Shown one piece after another: positions 954 through 24,835 of a stretch of 32,000 bases of DNA. Source of the stretch: Candidatus Methanoperedens sp. (GTDB taxonomy: Archaea; Halobacteriota; Methanosarcinia; Methanosarcinales; Methanoperedenaceae); NCBI GenBank assembly GCA_041494705.1, contig JBGQBI010000004.1, forward strand, positions 210,001 through 242,000. Direction: 5' to 3'. Position 1 is the stretch's first letter. Every line of letters begins with the position of its first letter. Under the pieces are notes generated by a model. It saw only the letters and a list, made by a program, of their open reading frames with translations. It ran no database searches and had not been told where the DNA came from. Made by a program: the position numbers and the translations under genes.

Positions 954-1023
954 GGAATAAATGCGGAGCAATTTGCCTGATTTATTCTGTTTTTGGAATT
1001 ATAATGACAACTGTTGCTGATTT
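954..1023 (+). repeat. 70-bp direct repeat, copy 1 (promoter-like, contains 8-bp hairpin GAATAAAT/ATTTATTC and TTATAAT)
   Basis: 66 of 70 nt are identical to 3154-3223. The offset between copies is exactly 2200 bp. Confidence 0.9.
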
Positions 1024-1061
1024 CTGAACCGATATAAGTAATGAGTTATTTATCAGGTATC

Positions 1062-1112
1062 AGGTGATACAAAATGAATCACATCAAAAGAAGGAATCGC
1101 CTTTGTCTCTGA
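1062..1112 (+). promoter_or_regulatory. Translation-start module copy A (SD AGGTGAT, ATG 1074, AGAAGG-N6-CTTTGT, 0-frame TGA 1110)
   Basis: The 0-frame reads atg aat cac atc aaa aga agg aat cgc ctt tgt ctc tga (MNHIKRRNRLCL). The module is homologous to copies at 10813, 5911(-), 9457(-) and 9707. Confidence 0.7.
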
Positions 1113-1299
1113 TAAAGGCAAAGTACAGAAAACAACTCCGGTTCTCAATACGTTGAAGGAGTGGCGTGAGTTTGAATACTCACGGGCACAGAAAACAACT
1201 CCGGTGCTTGAAACACTCGATGCAATGATAGCAAGAGCAGAGCAGGAATTGGCTGCTGAATCGAATAATGAACGAACAGTTAATTTTAGAGGTCGATAA
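1078..1299 (+). CDS. Small protein (about 73 aa) in the +1 frame of module A; start mechanism unresolved
   Basis: The frame is open for 74 codons and ends 2 nt before the dsrE-like ATG. It has an internal in-phase duplication QKTTPVL(N/E)TL (1126-1155 and 1189-1218) in which 4 of 5 differing codons are synonymous. There is no ATG/GTG/TTG before codon 50. Confidence 0.6.
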   Translation: MTSKEGIAFVSDKGKVQKTTPVLNTLKEWREFEYSRAQKTTPVLETLDAMIARAEQELAAESNNERTVNFRGR

Positions 1300-1301
1300 A
1301 C

Positions 1302-1631
1302 ATGACAAATTTATTATTAGTATTGTCCAAAGACCCGTATACAACCGAGATACCCAATCTCGTGCTGGATATCGGTTTAAATGCCAAGGCAAAGAAGGGC
1401 AACAACGTCTCCCTGTATCTTGTGGAGGACGGGGTTACCGCTGCAAGGAAAAGCGAATTCGGAAATAAACTTCAGGATGCTAAAAAGAAAGGCATCAGAA
1501 TTCTCGCAGATGATAAGGCTGTGCAGTCAAGAGGACTTGACGGCAACTTGGTTGCTGGCGTGGAAGTAAAGGAAATAGGCACCCTTCTCGACCACATAGT
1601 TGAGGACAACACGAGAGTGGCATGGTTCTGA
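1302..1631 (+). CDS. DsrE/DsrF/DsrH-family sulfur-relay protein (Cys-less, DsrH/TusB-like position)
   Basis: 109 aa. The N-terminal beta-strand LLLVLSKDPY and the motif KAVQSRGL are typical of the DsrEFH fold. It contains no cysteine. Confidence 0.65.
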   Translation: MTNLLLVLSKDPYTTEIPNLVLDIGLNAKAKKGNNVSLYLVEDGVTAARKSEFGNKLQDAKKKGIRILADDKAVQSRGLDGNLVAGVEVKEIGTLLDHIVEDNTRVAWF

Positions 1632-1641
1632 GGTGATAGGA

Positions 1642-2022
1642 ATGGCAAACAACGGCAATAGCAAAACCTTAACAATCGTATCGATAAACGGACCATATCG
1701 CGATGAAGCGGCATATACACTCATCAGGCTCGCCCATGCTGCAAAGGAGAAGGGTATCAATGTCAACTTCTTCAACTACCTTGACGGTACAATAATCGGA
1801 CACCGTGACCAGGGACCGAAGGAGTTCCCTGTTGTGGAGTCACTTTTTGGCACAGTGCTCAAGAAGGGGCTTAAAAATCCTAAGACCGATGCAATCGCAT
1901 GCATAAAATGCACCGATGCCCGCGGTGTGACAAAACAGCAGACTGAAGGCGTAGTCATCGGCGGGTTATATGACCTCGGTGAATGGACAGCGGAATCGGA
2001 TAAGACAATACTACTGGGGTGA
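1642..2022 (+). CDS. DsrE/TusD-like sulfurtransferase subunit (active-site Cys present)
   Basis: The ATG at 1642 is preceded by AGGTGATAGG. The motif IACIKCTDARGV matches the DsrE/TusD Cys-x-x-x-x-RG active-site region. Confidence 0.7.
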   Translation: MANNGNSKTLTIVSINGPYRDEAAYTLIRLAHAAKEKGINVNFFNYLDGTIIGHRDQGPKEFPVVESLFGTVLKKGLKNPKTDAIACIKCTDARGVTKQQTEGVVIGGLYDLGEWTAESDKTILLG

Positions 2023-2027
2023 AAAAT

Positions 2028-2402
2028 ATGAGCAAGAAAGTAAACATAATCGTGACCCAGCCACCCTACGGCAAGGAAGACGCATACAGCGCAATACCTC
2101 TTGCCGAGACGCAGGCTGCGGCAGGCAACTCGCCTTCAATCACTTTCGTGAGCGGAGGCGTGCATTCGGTGGTGAAGGGACAGAAGACAGGGTACGGCGA
2201 AGCTGCCGTATGGCAGAAAGATGTGCCGAGCGTGGAAGCTACCATCATCAAGGCAAAGGAGAGCGTCAGGTTTTATGCACTTGAGGCTGACCTGAAAAAA
2301 AGAGGTGTAGCTGACGGCGAAATTATCGAAGGAGTATCGAAGCTGAACATCGATGACCTCACGAACAGGATACTGGAGAGCGAGGTAACACTGGTGTTCT
2401 GA
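2028..2402 (+). CDS. DsrF/TusC-like sulfur-relay subunit (Cys-less)
   Basis: The ATG at 2028 follows GGGGTGA. The segments VNIIVTQPPYGKEDAY and LEADLKKRGV are DsrE/F-family features. Confidence 0.65.
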   Translation: MSKKVNIIVTQPPYGKEDAYSAIPLAETQAAAGNSPSITFVSGGVHSVVKGQKTGYGEAAVWQKDVPSVEATIIKAKESVRFYALEADLKKRGVADGEIIEGVSKLNIDDLTNRILESEVTLVF

Positions 2403-2403
2403 G

Positions 2404-2637
2404 ATGGGAATAGTTCACGACTTCGAACTGGACGTTAGGGGCGAGGCATGCCCCTATCCTTTAATCAGGACGAAACAGCAGGTGGGCAGGCTTCAAAAGG
2501 GCGAGGTGCTCAAAGTCCTTGCCAGCGACCCGGTGGCGCCGCAGAATATCGATGCGTGGGCAAAAAAATCGGGGAATGAACTGCTGGCTGTGGAAGTAAA
2601 CAACAGCACCTACAATATCTTTGTCTGGAAAGGCTAA
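2404..2637 (+). CDS. tusA: TusA/SirA-family sulfur carrier
   Basis: 77 aa. The segment LDVRGEACPYPLIRTKQ carries the CPxP motif, followed by LKVLASDP. Confidence 0.85.
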   Translation: MGIVHDFELDVRGEACPYPLIRTKQQVGRLQKGEVLKVLASDPVAPQNIDAWAKKSGNELLAVEVNNSTYNIFVWKG

Positions 2638-2731
2638 TCCCAACTTTTTTTTAAAACCTCCAAAGCGCATAATAAGAGCAATTTTTGCCTGCACCTTAAA
2701 TTACAATAAACCGGAAATTCATGGGATATAT

Positions 2732-2950
2732 ATGCATAAATTAGACGCAAGAGGCAAGGTATGCCCACTGCCCCTGTTTTATACCAAGAAAGAAATCGAT
2801 GAGTTGAAACCCGGGGAAGAGCTTGAAGTACTGACTGACGATGCAATCGCAAAAGATACGATTCCACGGTGGAGCAGGGAACACGGGCATGAAATAGTTA
2901 AGGTCGAGGATTCAGGCCGCGATTTTAGAGTGGTTATAAGAAAACGCTGA
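2732..2950 (+). CDS. tusA: TusA/SirA-family sulfur carrier, second paralogue
   Basis: 72 aa from the ATG at 2732. The segment LDARGKVCPLPLFYTKK carries CPxP, followed by LEVLTDD. It is separated from the first tusA by a T8 run. Confidence 0.85.
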   Translation: MHKLDARGKVCPLPLFYTKKEIDELKPGEELEVLTDDAIAKDTIPRWSREHGHEIVKVEDSGRDFRVVIRKR

Positions 2951-3153: not shown

Positions 3154-3223
3154 GGAATAAATGCGGAGCAATTTGCCTGATTTATTCGGTTTCTGGAACT
3201 ATAATGGCAACTGTTGCTGATTT
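3154..3223 (+). repeat. 70-bp direct repeat, copy 2 (38 nt upstream of S-layer ATG)
   Basis: 66 of 70 nt are identical to 954-1023. Confidence 0.9.
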
Positions 3224-3260
3224 ATCTAATGTTATATAGGTTTGGAAAAATGTCTGGCGC

Positions 3261-5387
3261 ATGGAGTTAACAAAAATGATAAAAATATTTACAATATTTG
3301 CACTTATGTTCATACTGGCAATACCTGCGACAGCAGCCAATATAACAAAAGTCGAAATTCACGGCGTGGTTTTTGACGAAAAATCAAGTACCTACAATAC
3401 CACATTGCAATGGGATGCCCAGAACTTCACAGGATTCTATTATAACTTTAACGGGGGGAAGTCAAGTGAAACTCTCAACATTACTCAATCTGCTTCAAGC
3501 TTAACAGCCAGCAGCAGGACTATTCAGAAGGATAATCTGTTTTATAATACCTCGCGCACAAGCCAGAACTACACCCTGTTCACTGCAAAAGGGTGGAAAG
3601 TTGAGAACGGTCTTACAAGTACCTTTACAAAAAATACCACAGGAGGCTATTATGCACAGCTTGGATGGTTCGGTGATCGGTACGTGGCTGTAAACGGGAA
3701 AGCAAACAAATTAGCTAAACTGATTAAAGAGCAGAAGATAGAGGAAAAACAGATATTAAAGCTCGGCACAGCATGGGACCTCGGGGAAGGTTACAATATT
3801 ACGGTTGAATCTCTTGATACAACAACTTCCCCAAGGCAAGCATGGCTTTCCCTTAACAAGGATGGAAAAGTTCTTGATAATAGGGTCGTGAACGAGGGTG
3901 ATGTTTATACTTACGTTGAGAAAAGCGTGAGCGGCGAATCGGATGTCCCAATATTTGTTACTTATGTGGAAAGTATCTTTACTGGTGGAGAGGGCATGTC
4001 TGTGCTTGTTCAGCTCAGATATACCTGGCTCATCTCCCGGAATGTGCTTGAGGTCAAGGTAGCAGATAAGTTCGGCGTGTTTGAGGTAAAGGAGGCAAAT
4101 GAAAACTACCTGCTTCTTTACAATAAGGACAAGACCGTAAACCTTGACCAGAACACAGTGCAGCCACTTTACAGCGATCTGAAATTTAAAGTAGCGGATA
4201 AGGATACAGCTTTGCGGTTCTATCCGATTCTTGAAAAAACAGCGCCCGGAAAGTATGAGATACGGGGAGGCGCCTATGACCAGACCCAATACAAGAATCT
4301 TGTCTGGGATGCCCAGAGGTTCCCTGGCTTCTATTATAACTTTAACGGAGGAAAGTCAAGTGAAACCCTCAACATTACTCAATCTGCTTCAAGCTTAAAT
4401 GCCAGCAGCAGGACTATTCAGAAAGAGAATCTGTTTTATAATACCTCGCGAACAAGCCAGAACTACACGCTGTTCACTGCAAAAGGGTGGAAAGTTGAGA
4501 ACGGTCTTACAAGTACCTTTACAAAAAATACCACAGGAGGCTATTATGCACAACTTGGATGGTTCGGCGATCGGTACGTGGCTGTAAACGGGAAAGCAAA
4601 CAAATTAGCTAAACTGATTAAAGAGCAGAAAATAGAGGAAAAGCAGACTTTGAAGCTCGGCACAGCATGGGACCTCGGAGAGGGATACAATCTTACAGTC
4701 GAAGCACTCGATACAAAAGCATCTCCAAGGCAAGCATCGCTTTCACTATCCAGGGATGGCAAAATTCTTGATACCAAAGTAGTGAACGAGGGGGATGTCT
4801 ATACCTACACCGAGAAAAGCGTTAGTGGCGAGTCCGATGTGCCGATATTTGTAACCTACGTGGAAAGCATATTCACAGGCGACGAAGGCATGTCCGCCTT
4901 TGTCCAGCCCAGGTACACATGGCTTGTCTCGCAGAATGTGTTTGAAGTTAAAGCAGGAGATAAGTTCGGCGTATTTGAGGTAAAGGAAGCTAATGAAAAC
5001 TACCTGCTCCTCTATAACAAAGACAAGCAGATAGACCTCAATCAGAACACTGTCCTGCCGTTATACGGCGATCTGAAATTTAAAGTAGCGGATAAGGATA
5101 CAGCTTTGCGGTTCTATCCCTTTATAGAGCAAACAATCCCATCCAATAAGGAATTAAAAGCTGCAAGTGCAGTTCCAACCACTACAGTGCCCACAATAAC
5201 ACAGGCGTCATCTGCAATATCATCCTCGCTGCAAGCGGCAGCGCCAGAAGCTGCATTAGCCCCGGTGCAGACAGTCGTGTCGATAAAAACAGAAAATAAC
5301 ACATCTGCACCAGGGCAGTGGTACTGGGTTCTGTTTGCAATCGCGGGTCTTGTTACAACAGGATACCTGGTGTTGAGGAGAGATTAA
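3261..5387 (+). CDS. S-layer protein with tandem DUF1608-type domains, Thr/Ser/Ala-rich stalk and C-terminal TM anchor
   Basis: 708 aa. It has a signal peptide (IFALMFILAIPATAANIT), two 298-aa repeats, the stalk PTTTVPTITQASS, and a C-terminus PGQWYWVLFAIAGLVTTGYLVLRRD. This architecture matches Methanosarcina-type S-layer proteins. Confidence 0.9.
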   Translation: MELTKMIKIFTIFALMFILAIPATAANITKVEIHGVVFDEKSSTYNTTLQWDAQNFTGFYYNFNGGKSSETLNITQSASSLTASSRTIQKDNLFYNTSRTSQNYTLFTAKGWKVENGLTSTFTKNTTGGYYAQLGWFGDRYVAVNGKANKLAKLIKEQKIEEKQILKLGTAWDLGEGYNITVESLDTTTSPRQAWLSLNKDGKVLDNRVVNEGDVYTYVEKSVSGESDVPIFVTYVESIFTGGEGMSVLVQLRYTWLISRNVLEVKVADKFGVFEVKEANENYLLLYNKDKTVNLDQNTVQPLYSDLKFKVADKDTALRFYPILEKTAPGKYEIRGGAYDQTQYKNLVWDAQRFPGFYYNFNGGKSSETLNITQSASSLNASSRTIQKENLFYNTSRTSQNYTLFTAKGWKVENGLTSTFTKNTTGGYYAQLGWFGDRYVAVNGKANKLAKLIKEQKIEEKQTLKLGTAWDLGEGYNLTVEALDTKASPRQASLSLSRDGKILDTKVVNEGDVYTYTEKSVSGESDVPIFVTYVESIFTGDEGMSAFVQPRYTWLVSQNVFEVKAGDKFGVFEVKEANENYLLLYNKDKQIDLNQNTVLPLYGDLKFKVADKDTALRFYPFIEQTIPSNKELKAASAVPTTTVPTITQASSAISSSLQAAAPEAALAPVQTVVSIKTENNTSAPGQWYWVLFAIAGLVTTGYLVLRRD
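3351..5138 (+). repeat. Intragenic tandem duplication, 2 x 894 nt (298 codons)
   Basis: TGGGATGCCCAGA occurs at both 3411 and 4305. An identical peptide run of more than 70 aa (LFYNTSRTSQ...KIEEKQ) is present in both halves, with only about 6 nt differences, all synonymous. Confidence 0.95.
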
Positions 5388-5604: not shown

Positions 5605-5892
5605 TTATCCGGTCGGCACCCCCGGGGCATTATTCAGCCCGTACAGGCTCTGGCGCGCATCCTGGAAATAGAAGCGCTCCTGCAATATATTTTCTTCTTT
5701 CAGTCTGTTCAGGGCGTATCTGACTGTTCTTGCCGGAAGATAGGTTTCCCTCGCAATATCCTTTTGTGTCAAAAAGCCGCTGGATTCCAGCACTTTGAAA
5801 ACAAGCTTTGCCGAGGGAGGTAAATGATCTATCTTCGCGTTCGCTAACTCAAATAGCTGTCCATTGTTTGCAAAGACGATTCCTTCTTGAAT
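5605..5892 (-). CDS. Small winged-helix transcriptional regulator; +1 frame of module C; start unresolved
   Basis: The segment LPPSAKLVFKVLESSGFLTQKDIARETYLPARTVRYALNRLKEENIL is a typical archaeal wHTH. The first canonical start (GTG 5793) would delete helix 1. The frame is open up to 5892, where a TGA overlaps the module ATG. Confidence 0.7.
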   Translation of the reverse strand: MQEGIVFANNGQLFELANAKIDHLPPSAKLVFKVLESSGFLTQKDIARETYLPARTVRYALNRLKEENILQERFYFQDARQSLYGLNNAPGVPTG

Positions 5893-5911
5893 TCATTTTA
5901 AAATTCTCCAG
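5849..5911 (-). promoter_or_regulatory. Translation-start module copy C (SD GGAG, ATG 5896, AGAAGG-N6-CTTTGC, 0-frame TGA 5851-5849)
   Basis: The 0-frame reads atg aat tca aga agg aat cgt ctt tgc aaa caa tgg aca gct att tga (MNSRRNRLCKQWTAI). Confidence 0.7.
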
Positions 5912-6264: not shown

Positions 6265-6921
6265 TCATTGAATTTCTGCTTTGAATTTTTCGAATCCGAT
6301 CTCATCGATGAATTCCCCAAGCCGCTTTTTCTTGGAATGTCTTTTATAATACTCTATTACCCTGTCCACCGTCTCAAGTACTTCCTCATCTGACAGGTTT
6401 TCACCAAGTGTTTCGCCTAATCTGGGTTTTAATCCCGCACTGCCGCCTACAGTGATTTTCCAGCCTTTCGGAGTGCCCACAATTCCTATATCTTTGATAA
6501 TGTGTTCTGAACACGAATTAAGACATCCGGAAACCCCGATTTTTAATTTTGATGGTAATTCCAACCCATCATATTTTTTATCAAGTTTTAAGCCCATCCC
6601 GACAGAATCCTGCTGGCCTTTTTTACAGAAAGTAGTACCCGGGCATATCTTGACACTCCGCACGCAGAGTCCTAATGCGTGAGCGGGTTTCATTTGCAAG
6701 TCTGCCCATACATTATCCAGGTCTTCCTGTTTTATTCCTACAATGGCTATCCTCTGGGCAGAAGTTAATTTCAATGCACCGGCATTATACTTTTCTGCTA
6801 CGTCTGCTATTTTTCTAAGTCCTGCCGAAGTTATTATTCCGCCGGGTATGTGCGGTGCAACCGCGAATGTTTTCTCGTCTCTTTGTACAATAGCTCCTTT
6901 TTCAAGCATGTCTTTTGCCAT
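6265..6921 (-). CDS. Small siroheme/[4Fe-4S] sulfite (nitrite) reductase, assimilatory low-molecular-weight type
   Basis: 218 aa. The cysteine pattern CPGTTFC (CX5C) plus SGCLNSC (CX3C) is the siroheme-cluster ligand set. An SD AGGAGGA lies upstream. Confidence 0.8.
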   Translation of the reverse strand: MAKDMLEKGAIVQRDEKTFAVAPHIPGGIITSAGLRKIADVAEKYNAGALKLTSAQRIAIVGIKQEDLDNVWADLQMKPAHALGLCVRSVKICPGTTFCKKGQQDSVGMGLKLDKKYDGLELPSKLKIGVSGCLNSCSEHIIKDIGIVGTPKGWKITVGGSAGLKPRLGETLGENLSDEEVLETVDRVIEYYKRHSKKKRLGEFIDEIGFEKFKAEIQ

Positions 6922-6961: not shown

Positions 6962-7402
6962 TTATTTAAAGTACCTGTCGAGCAAGCCTTTCAATGCTCT
7001 GGCATGTCTTGCCTCATCTCTTGCCGAGACATCGAAAAAGTCATGGGCTTCATCTATCCCCGCTTCTTTTGATTTTATTGCGGAGTCCCGTTTATATTTA
7101 TTTGCGCCTTCTTCGCCTTTTTGCATTCGCAAGAGGTTCTCTTTTGTGCTGCTGGAAATCAGACCGCTTAGTTCGGCATATCCTGCCGCGTGCCATGCTT
7201 CTTCCATAGCTATCGTTTTCAGTACTTCTGCCACCTCAGGGTAGCCTTCCCGCTGTGCCTGTTTTGCCATTGCAAGATAGAGCCCGACTTCGCCTGTCTC
7301 GCCTTTGAAACTGTTTCCGGCTGCTTCTTCCATAACCGTTCCTTTGACTATTCCGATTTTGTTCTCGCTTATCAAGTCCATAATTTCTCCATTGTTAGAC
7401 AT
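6962..7402 (-). CDS. Rubrerythrin-family diiron protein (no rubredoxin domain)
   Basis: 146 aa with two ExxH motifs (MEEAWHA and RDEARHA). It lies 40 nt upstream of the sulfite reductase on the same strand. Confidence 0.85.
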
Positions 7403-7644: not shown

Positions 7645-8049
7645 TCACATCTTATTTTTTAAAAAAACGCCCATTTTCTTATCCACTTTGCCAATATGCT
7701 GTATGAGCCAATCTACGATTTTTTTATTAATTTTGATGGTTAGACTAAGGGTTTCCCCTTGCGTTTCAAACTGTTTCTTTAATTCTAAAAAGTCTTTTAT
7801 AAAATTCGTATGCTGTTCCTTATGTGAGGGGTAATCCGGGTAGCCGTATCTGGTCATATATTTTTCTTCAGTACCGAAATGTGTCACTACATATTCTTCC
7901 AAAAACTTTACTAACTTACTAACCTCTTCTCTTCCTTTGCATTGACGGCAAGCTTCAAACAGCATATCAACCCTATTAAACAATTCTTTGTGTTGATTAT
8001 CTATCTCTTCTATGCCGGTTGCCAGATTCTGATTCCATTCTATTGTCAT
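7645..8049 (-). CDS. Hemerythrin-like metal-binding protein
   Basis: 134 aa. It starts IEWNQNLATGIEEIDNQHKELF and also contains HFGTEE, HKEQH and IQHIGKVD. Confidence 0.85.
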   Translation of the reverse strand: MTIEWNQNLATGIEEIDNQHKELFNRVDMLFEACRQCKGREEVSKLVKFLEEYVVTHFGTEEKYMTRYGYPDYPSHKEQHTNFIKDFLELKKQFETQGETLSLTIKINKKIVDWLIQHIGKVDKKMGVFLKNKM

Positions 8050-8213: not shown

Positions 8214-8969
8214 ATGACGTATATCCTGAAACCTGAAGAAGAAGTTGCGAAAATCTTCTCAGATAAGACGAGACTCAAGATAATTGAATTGTTATCAGAG
8301 AAGGAGATGGCAAATACACAATTAGCCGAGCTTACAAAACTGAGTAAAGCAACGATTTCCCATCATATCAAATTACTTGTTGATGCCGGGATTGTGAAAA
8401 TAGCACGGATAGAGCACGAGGAACATGGCATCCGGATGAAATTCTACACTGTTAATCCCAATATTCTTTCGGTTGCAGTACATAAACAGGGCATTTTAAG
8501 GGAGCAAATCAAAAAAGAAATACAGGAAGCCATGATGAGCGAAAGAAAAAGAAAAGGCTTCATAAACGAAGCGAAACCGGCTTTCTTTAGATTGCTGAAA
8601 TCATCCATGCTCAATGCGGGGATAGACCTGGATAAACCATTCTACGATACTGGCTACGAGATAGGGTCGGAAGTCATTTCTAAAGAAATAAAAGGGTCTA
8701 CGCTCGAAGATGTATTAAAAGAACTGGCGGATATCTGGAAGAAGCTCGGACTTGGAACTATAGAATTGGCTGAGGCTAATAAGATCAGGGTGAAGGATTG
8801 CTACCAGTGTTCCAATATGCCGGATGTAGGAAAACCTCTCTGCCCGAGCGATGCCGGAATTATTGCAGGCGTCCTGGATAAAACCCTCGGAAAAAAACAT
8901 TCTGTCAAAGAAGTAAAATGCTGGGGCACAGGATACGATTTCTGCGAATTTGAGATAGAAGAGCTGTAG
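8214..8969 (+). CDS. ArsR-family HTH regulator with C-terminal V4R (4-vinyl-reductase-like) sensor domain
   Basis: The N-terminal part RLKIIELLSEKEMANTQLAELTKLSKATISHHIKLLVDAGIV is an ArsR-type HTH. The C-terminal Cys-rich part CYQCSNMPDVGKPLCPSDAGIIAG...CEFEIE is V4R-like. Confidence 0.8.
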   Translation: MTYILKPEEEVAKIFSDKTRLKIIELLSEKEMANTQLAELTKLSKATISHHIKLLVDAGIVKIARIEHEEHGIRMKFYTVNPNILSVAVHKQGILREQIKKEIQEAMMSERKRKGFINEAKPAFFRLLKSSMLNAGIDLDKPFYDTGYEIGSEVISKEIKGSTLEDVLKELADIWKKLGLGTIELAEANKIRVKDCYQCSNMPDVGKPLCPSDAGIIAGVLDKTLGKKHSVKEVKCWGTGYDFCEFEIEEL

Positions 8970-9649: not shown

Positions 9650-10135
9650 GTGACAAAATATGCCTGTATATCCAGGGATATATATCCTGTCCGCATGGAC
9701 AGATGCGGTGAAAAAAACCAATGTCAAATAAAAGAAGGGATCATTTTTGCCACCTATAACAAATGGGATGGTATAGAATCATCGATAGATGAGGGTACTG
9801 AGGAAAAACTAAAGGTCTCCGCGTATGAGAACTACGCAGAAGAAGGGCTGAGAAAACCGGAATACCGGCGCATGCGAATAAGCATTGAAAGATTGGCTCG
9901 CACACTTGCAGTAATTGAAACAAGCTGGCAGCGTGCGGGCAGGCATCATGCGCTTCGGGAGCTTGAAAACGTACTCACCCGGCAGCATGAAGTTGAGAGG
10001 GATGCAGAGAATATCGAAGATGTATTCCTGCGCGGATACATCTATGAGCAGCTCGATATTGTTGCTGCAACAAGACGGTCTCTGGCTGAAGAAGTCAGAT
10101 GGGATATCGAAGCCAGTAAGAAAACTTGGGAATAA
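9650..10135 (+). CDS. Hypothetical protein (137-161 aa); its frame is the +1 frame of module F
   Basis: The long ORF contains QIKEGIIFATYNKWDG at the module. Candidate starts are GTG 9650, ATG 9695 (no SD), or the module ATG 9721 with a shift. No family was recognised. Confidence 0.6.
   Translation: MTKYACISRDIYPVRMDRCGEKNQCQIKEGIIFATYNKWDGIESSIDEGTEEKLKVSAYENYAEEGLRKPEYRRMRISIERLARTLAVIETSWQRAGRHHALRELENVLTRQHEVERDAENIEDVFLRGYIYEQLDIVAATRRSLAEEVRWDIEASKKTWE
9707..9759 (+). promoter_or_regulatory. Translation-start module copy F (SD GGTGA, ATG 9721, AGAAGG-N6-TTTTGC, 0-frame TAA 9757)
   Basis: The 0-frame reads atg tca aat aaa aga agg gat cat ttt tgc cac cta taa (MSNKRRDHFCHL). Confidence 0.6.
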
Positions 10136-10812: not shown

Positions 10813-10860
10813 AGGTGAATTAAAATGAATACAAGAAGGAATCATCTTTGCCGTCACTGA
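10813..10860 (+). promoter_or_regulatory. Translation-start module copy B (SD AGGTGAA, ATG 10825, AGAAGG-N6-CTTTGC, 0-frame TGA 10858)
   Basis: The 0-frame reads atg aat aca aga agg aat cat ctt tgc cgt cac tga (MNTRRNHLCRH). Confidence 0.7.
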
Positions 10861-10969
10861 TGACAACAATTTAATGAATAGATATATAAAACATAGTGCA
10901 GAATTCCTGCATATCCGGGATTTCCTGCAACAACAGAAAATTATTCTAAATAATTCGAGGTGGAATTAA
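10829..10969 (+). CDS. 46-aa ORF in the +1 frame of module B, stop overlapping the pstS start (TAATG)
   Basis: The product is IQEGIIFAVTDDNNLMNRYIKHSAEFLHIRDFLQQQKIILNNSRWN. The frame is open across AT-rich DNA. It has an internal ATG at 10874. Confidence 0.4.
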   Translation: MQEGIIFAVTDDNNLMNRYIKHSAEFLHIRDFLQQQKIILNNSRWN

Positions 10970-13831: not shown

Positions 13832-14152
13832 ATGAAAAACTTAAGTTTAATCAAAAGAAGGGGTATGCGAAGCATACCCCCAGACCGGATAAAGCGAGGT
13901 GTCGCTAAACTTTTAGAAAAGTTTATTAAAGACAACACGTATGGCTTTGCCATACGTAAACCTTTAAGAAAGGTTTATCAAAAAACTTTAGGAAAGTTTT
14001 ATCAAACGAGGGGTATGCTGCGCATACCCCAACACTGCGCAAGCCGAAGTATCGGCTTTCAAACGACAGGTATGCAACGCATACCTGAACACCACGTAAA
14101 CCGGGGTATCGGTTTACGTGGACACCGAATAAAGCGAGGTGTCGCTTTTTGA
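13832..14152 (+). other. Array of 11 perfect hairpins filling the pstA-pstB gap; also an uninterrupted 106-codon, highly basic ORF
   Basis: Hairpin coordinates are 13860-13880, 13890-13906, 13907-13924, 13937-13957, 13958-13976, 13982-14000, 14010-14030, 14041-14058, 14067-14087, 14093-14120 and 14129-14147. The ATG at 13832 lies 4 nt after the pstA stop. The stop overlaps the pstB TTG start. Confidence 0.8.
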
Positions 14153-15141
14153 AAAGCCATATCAGCATCCAGAATGTCAATGCATTCTACAGCGACCATC
14201 AGGCACTTCGGGGCATAACTGTTGAAATACCGCAAAAGCAGATAACAGCTATCATCGGCCCGAGCGGATGCGGGAAGAGTACCTTGCTCAAGTGTTTCAA
14301 CAGGCTTATCGACCTCACAGACGGAGCAAGAGTATCAGGGAAAATAATAGTGGATGGCATGGATGTGCTCAGCGCCAGCTCTGAAATAACCGAAATAAGG
14401 CGAAGGATGGGTTTGCTTCCGCAAAAGCCAAACCCGCTCCCAATGTCGATATACGATAATGTTGCATACGGGCCCAAGCTGCATGGAAAACCGGACAAGA
14501 AAGAACTGGACGAAATTGTTGAAAAATACCTGAAAATAGCTGGTTTGTGGGATGAAGTGAAAGACCGCCTGAAGTCTCCGGCATCGAAACTCTCCATAGG
14601 GCAGCAGCAGAGGCTCTGCCTTGCAAGAGGACTGGCTGTCGAGCCCGAAATTATCCTGTGCGATGAGCCGACATCAGCATTAGACCCGGTCTCATCGCAG
14701 CATATCGAGGAGCAGCTCCTGAAACTCAAGAAGGATTACACCATCGTGATAGTTACTCACAACATCCACCAGGCAATGAGGCTTGCTGACTACGTTATCC
14801 ATCTATACCTCGGTGAAATCGTGGAACATGGGCCCGCAAATGAAGTGTTTGAAAACCCGAAAGAAGAGAGGACGCGGGCGTATATTAACGGGACTTTCCT
14901 TGTTGATGTGAAAGTGGATAAAGAGATAAATCTGAAAGGAAATGTGTGCCCGTATAATTTTGTGTATGCCAAACAGGCGCTGTCTGCGCTTCCTAAAGGA
15001 AAAATCCTTAAGATAATCGTGGACGATCCCACGGCAGTAACCGAAGTTCCGAGGGGCATGGAAGCCGACGGTCATGAGGTATTAAGCGTGAATCAGCAAA
15101 ATAAAACGGATTGGGAGATAATCATAAGGAAGCAAAGCTAA
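14149..15141 (+). CDS. pstB: Phosphate ABC transporter ATPase PstB fused to a C-terminal TusA-like domain
   Basis: It has Walker A GPSGCGKST, signature LSIGQQQRL and Walker B IILCDEPTSALD. The PstB core ends at RTRAYINGTF (about aa 250). Residues 256-328 read INLKGNVCPYNFVYAKQAL...ILKIIVDDP...GHEVLSV...WEIIIRK, which is the TusA pattern. Confidence 0.85.
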   Translation: MKSHISIQNVNAFYSDHQALRGITVEIPQKQITAIIGPSGCGKSTLLKCFNRLIDLTDGARVSGKIIVDGMDVLSASSEITEIRRRMGLLPQKPNPLPMSIYDNVAYGPKLHGKPDKKELDEIVEKYLKIAGLWDEVKDRLKSPASKLSIGQQQRLCLARGLAVEPEIILCDEPTSALDPVSSQHIEEQLLKLKKDYTIVIVTHNIHQAMRLADYVIHLYLGEIVEHGPANEVFENPKEERTRAYINGTFLVDVKVDKEINLKGNVCPYNFVYAKQALSALPKGKILKIIVDDPTAVTEVPRGMEADGHEVLSVNQQNKTDWEIIIRKQS

Positions 15142-18857: not shown

Positions 18858-18915
18858 GATTGATTTTTATTATAATTTCTTTACGCACTTCTCGTCTGGC
18901 ATGAAAAAGTGTAAA

Positions 18916-18984
18916 AACCACAGAGAACGCAGAGGACACAGAGAAAAATAACAAATCTCTGTGCTCTCTGTGTCCTCCGTGGTT
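18916..18984 (+). repeat. CCACAGAG hairpin repeat, copy 1
   Basis: The arms AACCACAGAGAACGCAGAGGACACAGAGA and TCTCTGTGCTCTCTGTGTCCTCCGTGGTT form a roughly 29-bp imperfect stem. The copy lies between convergent genes. Confidence 0.85.
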
Positions 18985-19105
18985 AATTATCTGACCGGGA
19001 TTGATAATCCAAATCAACTTATCTATTTCAATAGCGGGATAAGAAAATGCGTTTATACTTTCCTATAGGTTAAAAAAAAGAAATTAGTAATATGCATTTA
19101 GCATA

Positions 19106-24693: not shown

Positions 24694-24726
24694 TGATGAA
24701 TCGCTGCGCTTTCGCGGGTCTTGAAA

Positions 24727-24798
24727 AACCACAGAGAACGCAGAGGACACGGAGAAAAAAAATAACAAATCTCTGTGATCTCTGTGTCCTCCGTGGTT
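24727..24798 (+). repeat. CCACAGAG hairpin repeat, copy 2
   Basis: It is nearly identical to copy 1 in the same orientation. It lies between convergent genes. Confidence 0.85.
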
Positions 24799-24835
24799 AA
24801 TTAGTGGTCTGTAAATTTACATGCACTGAAAAACC

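Follow-up and report, generated by a model that had tools for sequence, protein, structure and literature searches.

A small gene without a conventional start ahead of the Candidatus Methanoperedens DsrE/TusA operon, and a recurrent leader cassette that may direct a +1 ribosomal frameshift

Introduction

Among archaeal cellular genes, programmed frameshifting has been demonstrated only for fucA1 of Sulfolobus solfataricus, in the -1 direction, and a +1 event in archaea has only been suggested, for a haloarchaeal virus (PMC8211752). Mycobacterial leaderless polycysteine small open reading frames (sORFs) sense cysteine (bioRxiv 10.1101/834739). The subject of this report is an sORF lying directly ahead of a DsrE/TusA sulfur-relay operon in a 32,000-nucleotide (nt) stretch of DNA from Candidatus Methanoperedens sp. 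(assembly GCA_041494705.1, contig JBGQBI010000004.1, positions 210,001 to 242,000 of the forward strand), which we refer to as the window. The sORF has no conventional start codon at the head of its own frame; the well-formed initiation site stands in the neighbouring frame, within a short leader cassette that recurs ahead of unrelated genes. We propose, giving the idea an even chance, that the sORF is expressed by a programmed +1 ribosomal frameshift. An earlier note, made from the sequence of the window alone, had singled out the sORF as a real gene with an unconventional start, chiefly on the strength of an internal in-phase duplication.

The arrangement resembles that of prfB (CUU_UGA_C), in which a short 5' ORF with a proper Shine-Dalgarno (SD) sequence and AUG is followed by a main ORF in the +1 frame. 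The heptamer of the cassette is one base off (CUU_UGU_C), the same re-pairing from CUU to UUU is possible, the site is conserved with occasional in-frame relatives, and an autoregulatory logic is plausible. The cassette differs from prfB in that its A-site codon is a sense codon for Cys and not a stop, archaea being without release factor 2; in that it has no convincing internal SD stimulator, its AGAAGG having one mismatch and lying 6 nt rather than 3 nt upstream; and in that the sORF product is an orphan small protein and the cassette is reused on several unrelated genes. With Ty1, ABP140 and EST3 (CUU_AGG_C, CUU_AGU_U) it shares a P-site CUU followed by a sense codon whose slow decoding would favour slippage, Cys codons being rare in the window (13 per 1000, of which TGT, the minor one, makes up 32%); those systems, however, are eukaryotic, and the limiting tRNA is known there. 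The trpL and hisL attenuators and the mycobacterial polycysteine leaders are likewise short 5' leader ORFs with a codon tied to the chemistry of the operon, but the cassette contains one Cys codon rather than a run, has no terminator/antiterminator structure and overlaps the main ORF out of frame, and its proposed read-out is a change of frame, not transcription attenuation. Like fucA1, the sORF is an archaeal cellular gene split into two frames and, on our proposal, expressed by recoding; fucA1 differs in shifting by -1 on an A_AAA_AAT heptamer, and is a single enzyme gene, neither a 5' leader nor a repeated cassette. Finally, the ATT at the SD-proximal start in 8 loci and the ATC starts annotated by NCBI for cassette homologues resemble the autoregulatory AUU start of infC, a gene that is read in one frame only and that no out-of-frame AUG overlaps. 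No description of the cassette was found in the literature on Methanoperedens frameshifting or DsrE/TusA, in the M. mazei ribosome profiling (Ribo-seq) paper or in the GeneTack survey.

Results

Coding character of the sORF

The main ORF of the sORF opens at 1078, directly after TGA 1075-1077 (coordinates of all features are collected in Table 1). A protein database search returned 11 homologues, and those with a source organism name come from Candidatus Methanoperedens; scans of genome and metagenome contigs yielded 36 related loci, the named ones all Methanoperedens or Methanoperedenaceae (individual loci are given L numbers below). We used a codon alignment of 32 distinct sequences, with per-codon counts in the leader made on 29 distinct rows. 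Frame 1 contained no stop codon in the alignment, against 131 and 267 in the other two frames, and the indels were all of whole codons, either one or three. When the ratio of the proportions of non-synonymous and synonymous differences (pN/pS) was pooled over 1108-1152, upstream of the TTG at 1153, frame 1 gave 0.30 and the other frames 1.63 and 1.17; over 1153-1287 the values were 0.29, 1.23 and 0.95. A codon-aware test of all three frames, which the earlier note had suggested along with a search for stops and indels in homologous loci, thus found purifying selection only in frame 1 (0.29-0.30, compared with at least 0.95 in the others). Because purifying selection is specific to this frame, the ORF is open and the indels are multiples of three, frame 1 is concluded to be translated. 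Judged from its substitution pattern, 1078-1299 is a genuine protein-coding gene restricted to Candidatus Methanoperedens, and very probably a translated gene with a non-standard start.

The duplication is present as the earlier note described it. Copy 1 (CAGAAAACAACTCCGGTTCTCAATACGTTG; CAG AAA ACA ACT CCG GTT CTC AAT ACG TTG, QKTTPVLNTL) and copy 2 (CAGAAAACAACTCCGGTGCTTGAAACACTC; CAG AAA ACA ACT CCG GTG CTT GAA ACA CTC, QKTTPVLETL) are offset by 63 nt, in phase in window frame 1, and are identical at 23 of 30 nt; an exact repeat of 18 nt (1125-1142 and 1188-1205) supplies the sole exact 17-mers recurring within 100 nt in the 32-kb window. Four of the five codons that differ are synonymous in frame 1, compared with none of the five in each other frame; for 7 random substitutions between the copies, the probability of at most one non-synonymous codon is 0.001. 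The further claim that both copies precede the first canonical start of the frame, ATG 1225, stood for copy 1 but not for copy 2, since TTG 1153, the first start of frame 1 under translation table 11, had been overlooked and falls between the copies. As for conservation, what the relatives retain is the peptide and not the nucleotide repeat. Both copies share the motif x-(K/R)-x-T-P-(V/I/M)-L-x-T-L across relatives, with TPVLxTL kept in both in almost every family member, whereas the identity between copies is only 14-22 of 30 nt in the 27 ungapped sequences; in most of these copy 2 reads Q(R/K)(R/K)TP, and KTTP is exclusive to the window genome. The internal TPVLxTL repeat is ancient, and the high nucleotide identity of the copies is partly peculiar to the window genome, where the excess may come from a small conversion event or from chance. 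At 1192-1200, the KTT of copy 2 is seen only here, most relatives having R or K at the third residue, and the two substitutions involved both go toward the copy-1 sequence, a pattern that suggests micro gene conversion between the repeats.

The product had been called unrecognised, and it stayed so in sensitive profile searches of the translation: Pfam and NCBIfam gave no match above cut-off, the best PDB profile match had E = 0.88, the best Foldseek match with the sORF model had E = 1.3, and profile searching across 1.84 billion representative proteins turned up only the sORF's own family. The predicted trans-frame product has 74 amino acids (aa). Its AlphaFold2 model (mean predicted local distance difference test score 71) has a disordered N-terminus and helices at residues 19-37 and 42-66, each of which begins at one repeat copy, so that the product is modelled as an orphan helical hairpin of about 74 aa.

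The missing start and the initiation site in the neighbouring frame

In agreement with the unconventional start put forward in the earlier note, 31 of the 36 distinct loci have no ATG, GTG or TTG in the main frame before the conserved N-terminus (I/V)TSKEGI(A/V)FVSDK. The frame is closed just upstream by the TGA at 1075-1077 or, in a second clade, by a TAA at the equivalent of 1084-1086. What is conserved instead is a leader of the form GGTGA(T/A), a spacer of 3-5 nt, ATG AAT CAY ATH AAA AGA AGG RAT CGN CTT TGY CTC and a stop; in the window it reads ATG AAT CAC ATC AAA AGA AGG AAT CGC CTT TGT CTC TGA, and the corresponding short ORF, whose frame we call frame 0, was found in all frame-split family members. 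The M. nitroreducens reference (L017) carries AGGAGGATC as its SD, a different part of the same anti-SD complement, and both GGTGAT and AGGAGG are complementary to the 3' end of archaeal 16S rRNA. Neighbouring genes at 1642 (GAGGTGAT-4 nt-ATG) and 2028 (GGGGTGA-5 nt-ATG) have a matching SD and spacing. Because the conserved SD and ATG, which the earlier note had missed, sit in window frame 3, the main frame is +1 relative to the only good initiation site, and on this comparison SD 1063-1068 with ATG 1074 is the only credible ribosome entry site of the sORF. In 8 fetched loci (6 distinct alignment rows) ATT takes the place of ATG 1074, and the main frame of this clade still has a pN/pS of 0.23-0.30.

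The region from 1013 to 1073 is the only part of the upstream 'module A' region that lies ahead of the sORF in nearly all related loci, as judged by blastn. By archaeal promoter geometry its GATATAAG would be a TATA box, with the transcription start nearby. Within 1064-1082 of the window, GUGAU inside the SD is complementary to AUCAC of leader codons 2-3, and a small hairpin of the two, which appears in the computed fold, could mask the SD and the start codon.

Frame usage between 1083 and 1112

The 29 distinct rows were then read codon by codon. The frame-0 codons at 1083 (ATC/ATA), 1098 (CGC/CGT/CGA) and 1104 (TGT/TGC) vary only synonymously, and the frame-0 Cys codon at 1104 is invariant as Cys; the same changes give a stop at 1083, A/V/D at 1098 and V/A at 1104 when read in the main frame. 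Conversely, the main-frame wobble positions 1089, 1092, 1098, 1101 and 1104 never vary, and clear main-frame wobble variation starts only at 1108. Over 1087-1107 frame 0 has a pN/pS of 0.11, compared with 0.51 for frame 1; both values rest on few variable sites. Positions 1087-1097 are invariant but for a C at 1087 in L021 and a G at 1095 in 4 rows. The frame-0 wobble positions in 1088-1097 are thus frozen as well, and AAAGAAGGAAT is under double constraint, whether through dual coding or as an RNA or DNA signal. The pattern of substitutions demonstrates protein-level selection in both frames, each in its own stretch, and argues that frame 0 is read through the Cys codon.

The proposed shift and its site

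On our proposal, ribosomes would initiate at ATG 1074 in frame 0, and a +1 shift inside 1087-1107 would bring them into the main frame. The interval in which a shift is allowed is 1087-1112, its lower bound being the opening of the main frame in the TAA clade and its upper bound the frame-0 stop. At CUU_UGU_C, our best candidate for the site, the P-site Leu-tRNA would re-pair from CUU to UUU while the Cys codon waits in the A site. YTT_TGY is present in 32 sORF loci, in the 3 other window cassettes described below and in 8 distinct distant winged helix-turn-helix sequences, and L002, alone in having a clean in-frame ATG, is also the sole locus with a change at C1101. AAA_A at 1086-1089 may be an alternative or additional shift site; it occurs in most sORF loci, but L021 and window cassettes 2 and 4 (ACA/TCA AGA) do without it and keep CTT_TGY. 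Once shifted, ribosomes would translate as far as TAA 1297, 2 nt before the ATG of the DsrE-like gene, with the stop spanning the SD of that gene, and shifting could also set downstream expression.

Three homologues have fused frames. L002 has lost 4 nt after ATGAA, which brings the same ATG into frame, and reads TTT instead of CTT; in L041 and L042, the frames are fused by a deletion between CATCAA microhomologies, yet CTT is kept. The shift site is lost in only one of the three, which is weak support for the proposal. The deletion in L041 (400-450) and L042 (860-910) also removed the promoter, SD and ATG and joined the sORF to an upstream element (attgc.gctattg.tac; see also L001 3900-3950), and L041 gained a fortuitous in-frame ATG.

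Several other routes into the main frame were considered and rejected. Readthrough of the stop at TGA 1075 finds no start further upstream in frame 1, and the second clade has its TAA elsewhere. A -1 shift from GTG 1064 (frame 2) would begin inside the SD, and the frame of this GTG changes with spacer length. Transcriptional slippage has only A and T runs of 4-5 nt to act on, and L021 is without the A run. Bypassing, in which the ribosome would hop to a matching codon downstream, would leave out 1108-1143, a stretch under frame-1 selection. A shift at the frame-0 stop codon is at odds with the variation in both the last sense codon and the position of the stop (CTC TGA, CTC CGA TAA, CAC AGA TAA, CTC AAA TAA). 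Slow decoding of AGA or AGG as hungry codons was set aside because the two make up 50% of the Arg codons in the window. A candidate downstream stimulatory hairpin at 1099-1119 has conserved pairing, with covariation not above that of shuffles; the fold of 1060-1230 is unremarkable (z = -2.2). A transcription-attenuation leader was discarded as well, since the main ORF overlaps the leader and reaches to 2 nt before the DsrE-like ATG, leaving no room for a terminator.

Further copies of the leader cassette

Four copies of the cassette core AAGAAGGRATCGNCTTTG are present in the window, where 0.03 would be expected, and none of 100 shuffles reached four. Every window cassette has an SD and ATG in front and a long ORF in the +1 frame, and YTT_TGY is the only candidate shift site common to all four. 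The main ORF of cassette 2 encodes a winged-helix protein and has no canonical start before the GTG at codon 32 (V of FKVLES), which is inside the conserved LPPSAKLVFKVLE segment; compared with L028 its pN/pS is 0.18, and its first 25 codons have a pS of 0.70 and a pN of 0.12. In cassette 3, pN/pS of the main ORF is 0.40 against L039, and the main frame also has a GTG at 9650 and an ATG at 9695 upstream. Selection acts on these +1 ORFs as well. The main ORF of cassette 4 has no canonical start before the ATG at codon 16 (10874-10876, M of NNLMNRY), and a protein database search with its 46 codons found no homologue. Orthologous cassettes are present in other Methanoperedens loci. The split between the frames is conserved and the cassette recurs on other genes; by its sequence and setting, the leader is a reusable cassette ahead of unrelated genes, beyond the sORF. 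Rfam gave no match at gathering score over the whole window.

The winged-helix protein of cassette 2 has 1579 homologues among Methanomicrobia, whose N-termini have been set inconsistently by gene callers (MIVFV/VIVFV, MKWGIVFA, MVFV, or the internal Leu of LPPSAK). Eight distinct distant homologues were examined at the DNA level; they come from Methanoregula, Methanohalophilus mahii, Methanothrix soehngenii, ANME-2, a Methanoperedens metagenome-assembled genome (MAG) and metagenome contigs. All eight carry a short form of the cassette, consisting of an SD and ATG AG(T/G) (G/A)AT C(G/T)N YTT TGY, as in the ATG AGT GAT CGT TTT TGT that heads small winged-helix regulator genes, and their frame-0 peptides begin MSDRFC, MRDRFC, MRDLLC or MRNRLC. 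In all of them, the main ORF is +1 relative to the SD-ATG. The distance from ATG to core is 6, 15, 18 or 21 nt among the cassettes, and the frame relation is held across these four independent lengths. In five of the eight, a GTG stands in the main frame, 4 nt after the ATG; the other three have no canonical start there, and for these the NCBI start is ATC.

Some features of the distant loci were noted in passing. The winged-helix genes annotated with an ATC start lie in three genomes (L050, Methanohalophilus mahii CP001994.1, 330-370; L061; L062), and the M. mahii gene has three tandem cactattgtgaagtt upstream, its neighbours being a divergently oriented TusA gene and a radical-SAM gene. Other distant cassette-bearing winged-helix genes adjoin a CysRS-type synthetase gene (PF01406; L063 736-885) or Thi4 (L064-L066; L064/L065 1-89). 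Matches to two cassette patterns in IMG/VR were without an SD and family ORF, and look like chance.

Genomic setting

The earlier note had the sORF ending immediately before the sulfur-relay operon, a link that turned out to be conserved: in about 25 loci the sORF stop lies 2 nt before the DsrE-like ATG, and the operon is syntenic there, followed by an S-layer-like gene. The last sORF codons, AGA GGT CGA TAA, are near-invariant even at wobble positions and contain the SD of the DsrE-like gene. From this arrangement the sORF is taken to be the first cistron of the DsrE/TusA operon and, by inference, to be translationally coupled to the DsrE-like gene. In five loci the DsrE genes are deleted and the sORF directly precedes TusA2, and in L001 and L026 the DsrE-like gene is reduced to a stump.

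Module A contains an inverted repeat, GAATAAAT-N17-ATTTATTC, in its 5' half, and the palindrome GCAACTGTTGC. Only a subset of genomes has the 5' half ahead of the sORF. This half is common upstream of the S-layer gene, whereas the 3' part (1013-1036, on to 1073) is conserved upstream of the sORF across genomes. Just upstream of the sORF promoter region, the window has a HicB-like/HicA toxin-antitoxin pair (369-801) that is not conserved there in most related loci. The S-layer-like gene (3261-5387, 708 aa) contains a 300-nt direct repeat (3411-3710 and 4305-4604, 95%), the trace of a domain of about 300 aa that has been duplicated. With the genes between the cassettes, the first 15 kb of the window takes on a sulfur/redox theme (Table 1). 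The binding protein of the ABC transporter operon is only weakly PstS-like, and the substrate may not be phosphate; the transporter is Pst-like and not clearly one for sulfur, a caveat to the sulfur interpretation. Elsewhere in the window, an element of about 85 nt is present in two copies (18904-18989 and 24724-24803, 93-98%) with an internal inverted repeat, CCACAGAGAACGCAGAGGACACAGAGAA ... TCTCTGTG..TCTCTGTGTCCTCCGTGG, and might be terminator-like or a mobile repeat.

Table 1. Positions of the sORF, the leader cassettes and neighbouring features in the window
Feature	Position	Strand	Description
Main ORF of the sORF	1078-1299	+	Window frame 1, +1 relative to ATG 1074; 73 sense codons; stop TAA 1297-1299
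Frame-0 leader ORF, MNHIKRRNRLCL and stop	1074-1112	+	Window frame 3; 12 codons; stop 1110-1112; overlaps main frame
Shine-Dalgarno GGTGAT	1063-1068	+	5 nt before ATG 1074; GGTGA(T/A) conserved in family
Conserved upstream region	1013-1073	+	Promoter-like GATATAAG (1031-1038), short 5' untranslated region; blastn
Best candidate shift site CTT_TGT_C	1101-1107	+	YTT_TGY in every cassette examined; inferred site
Alternative candidate shift site AAA_A	1086-1089	+	Perfect Lys-tRNA re-pairing; would explain invariant KEGI codons
Repeat copy 1	1126-1155	+	Start of predicted helix 1; pN/pS 0.19 in frame 1 vs 2.42 and 53 in other frames
Repeat copy 2	1189-1218	+	Start of predicted helix 2; pN/pS 0.30 in frame 1 vs 1.71 and 1.26 in other frames
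Cassette core AAGAAGGAATCGCCTTTG	1088-1105	+	4 window matches at up to 2 mismatches
Cassette 1	1074	+	Frame-0 MNHIKRRNRLCL and stop; +1 ORF is the sORF
Cassette 2, frame-0 ORF MNSRRNRLCKQWTAI and stop	5849-5896	-	ATG AAT TCA AGA AGG AAT CGT CTT TGC ...
Cassette 2, main ORF	5605-5892	-	+1 frame; 95-aa winged-helix protein, IQEGIVFANNG...; HTH_24 2.4e-6
Cassette 3, frame-0 ORF MSNKRRDHFCHL and stop	9721-9759	+	ATG TCA AAT AAA AGA AGG GAT CAT TTT TGC CAC CTA TAA
Cassette 3, main ORF	9731-10135	+	+1 frame; KEGIIFATYNKW...; 134 aa; no known family
Cassette 4, frame-0 ORF MNTRRNHLCRH and stop	10825-10860	+	SD GGTGAA 10814-10819; ATG AAT ACA AGA AGG AAT CAT CTT TGC CGT CAC TGA
Cassette 4, main ORF	10829-10969	+	+1 frame; 46 codons; stop overlaps (TAATG) ATG 10969 of Pst-like ABC transporter operon
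Junction AGAGGTCGATAAACATG	1288-1304	+	SD of DsrE-like gene inside sORF 3' end, sORF stop, 2-nt gap, ATG 1302
Downstream operon	1302-2950	+	Three DsrE-family genes (weak TusB-, TusD-, TusC-like matches), two TusA-family genes; Pfam, NCBIfam
Module A	954-1036	+	83 nt; repeated at 3154-3236 (88%) just upstream of S-layer-like gene
NIR_SIR sulfite/nitrite-reductase-like gene	6268-6921	-	218 aa; between cassettes
Rubrerythrin	6965-7402	-	Between cassettes
Hemerythrin	7648-8049	-	Between cassettes
ArsR-V4R regulator	8214-8966	+	Between cassettes
ABC transporter ATPase	14149-15141		Above NCBIfam PstB cut-off; C-terminal TusA domain

Discussion

A gene under selection in one frame, headed by a conserved initiation site in another, is the arrangement for which we propose a programmed +1 frameshift. 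A number of observations weigh against this proposal. The assignment of individual codons in 1087-1107 to one frame or the other depends on very few variable sites, and the frame-0 wobble positions in 1088-1097 are frozen too, which a shift at 1101-1104 alone would leave unexplained. AGA and AGG are too common here to be hungry codons, the internal AGAAGG pairs weakly and imperfectly with the anti-SD (by inspection), and the hairpin 1099-1107/1111-1119, although retained and 91% paired, shows no covariation beyond that of shuffles. The loci with ATT in place of ATG need non-canonical initiation under any model. A conventional start is possible in the five of eight distant winged-helix homologues that have the main-frame GTG, and the out-of-frame ATG could there be a mere decoy or a regulatory upstream ORF (uORF). 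Finally, an invariant ATC (1096) stands in the main frame, and NCBI annotates an ATC start in M. mahii, M. soehngenii and the Methanoperedens MAG.

These last points lead to the main rival, AUC initiation under an overlapping uORF, which we consider a serious but rather unlikely explanation. Translation of the main ORF would begin at the invariant AUC at 1096, or in the short cassettes at GUG; MNHIKRRNRLCL with its stop would be a separate uORF that gates or competes with this initiation, no frameshift taking place. The ATC is invariant in every cassette, is directly preceded by GTG in the five distant homologues just mentioned and is the annotated start in those three genomes; the main ORF of the ATT clade stays under selection in the absence of ATG 1074; and a functional uORF peptide would also explain both the conservation of frame 0 and the fixed relation of the frames. 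AUC is, however, a very poor initiator in the systems tested. In Methanoperedens it lies 27 nt from the only SD and lacks one of its own, the adjacent AGAAGGA having zero spacing, and a strong, well-spaced out-of-frame AUG just upstream would intercept the majority of ribosomes. Stalling on the uORF would place a ribosome over the AUC, so that Cys limitation would repress and not induce the sulfur genes. The main frame shows no wobble variation at 1098, 1101 or 1104, directly behind the AUC. We regard it as improbable that the cassette is mainly a nucleic-acid operator duplicated together with promoters, bound either as DNA by the cassette-bearing winged-helix regulator or as RNA by a translational repressor, with two-frame coding as a by-product. 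The near-invariance of 1087-1097 in both frames, the presence of the cassette on the regulator's own gene and on neighbouring operons, as in an autoregulated regulon, and a partial AAGA...TCTT dyad (by inspection) are consistent with such a site, yet there is no clear palindrome or repeated half-site, and an operator explains neither the translation of the start-less main frame, nor the position of the ATG, always in the -1 frame at four distances, nor the frame-0 synonymy of the variable core sites. It is in any case compatible with either translation model rather than an alternative to them.

Two simpler explanations fared worse. Translation could begin at TTG 1153 to give a 48-aa protein, the 75 nt upstream being left over, untranslated, from a gene that was once longer. 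Table 11 gives TTG 1153 as the first start, several gene callers predict it, and four database homologues are called as 48 aa. This start is strongly disfavoured by the alignment and in our estimate very improbable, because selection is as strong upstream of the TTG as downstream of it (pN/pS 0.30 and 0.29, with 0.19 for copy 1 alone), its equivalent is missing from 7 of the 32 aligned sequences, no stop or frame-breaking indel lies upstream in any of the 32, and no SD precedes it (by inspection). An assembly or sequencing error, or a pseudogene in which a recent frameshift mutation split the gene from its start, might be suspected from a comparison with L001, relative to which the window has 2 extra nt in the spacer between SD and ATG and TGA instead of TGG. 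We give this next to no weight, as the comparative data refute it: about 30 independent assemblies, which cover different samples and species and count the M. nitroreducens reference among them, share the split, the ORF is still under purifying selection, and the open upstream frame of L001 is explained by variation in spacer length together with a change from AAT to GAT in frame 0.

If the sORF is expressed by a frameshift, the next question is what the shift responds to. A role in sensing cysteine or sulfur is attractive because an invariant frame-0 Cys codon lies at the candidate shift site, several cassette genes or their neighbours have to do with sulfur, directly or through a sulfur-transfer domain (TusA, DsrE, sulfite-reductase-like, CysRS, Thi4), and mycobacterial leaders sense Cys, although Cys-tRNA or sulfur status as the signal is speculative. 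Were Cys-tRNA(Cys) scarce, the ribosome would pause while YUU occupied the P site and UGY the A site, it would slip by +1, and the slip would switch on the +1 ORF, that is, the leader protein of the relay operon, the winged-helix regulator or the leader of the TusA-tagged ABC transporter. We think it unlikely that the cassette senses cysteine or sulfur, and likewise unlikely that the idea holds in its widest form, with SD-ATG-...-RAT-CNN-YUU-UGY as a portable cysteine- or sulfur-sensing frameshift leader of an ancient, class-wide regulon, to which the winged-helix genes that carry the short cassette beside TusA, CysRS and Thi4 genes in other Methanomicrobia would testify. Were the sensor interpretation true, it would represent amino-acid-responsive control by recoding, a mechanism undescribed in any prokaryote.

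If the frameshift is real, no conserved programmed +1 frameshift in archaeal cellular genes would precede it, and it would belong to a 5' cassette that can be reused and not to one peculiar gene; it would also offer a testable route by which sulfur or cysteine status could be coupled to expression in methanogens and methane-oxidising archaea. If initiation at AUC is correct instead, a conserved translational control element would have been identified, and it would explain why small regulators and leader ORFs are mis-started, truncated or missed by gene callers, many database entries beginning at the internal Leu of LPPSAK. Either way, the sORF merits annotation as the first gene of the Methanoperedens DsrE/TusA operon.

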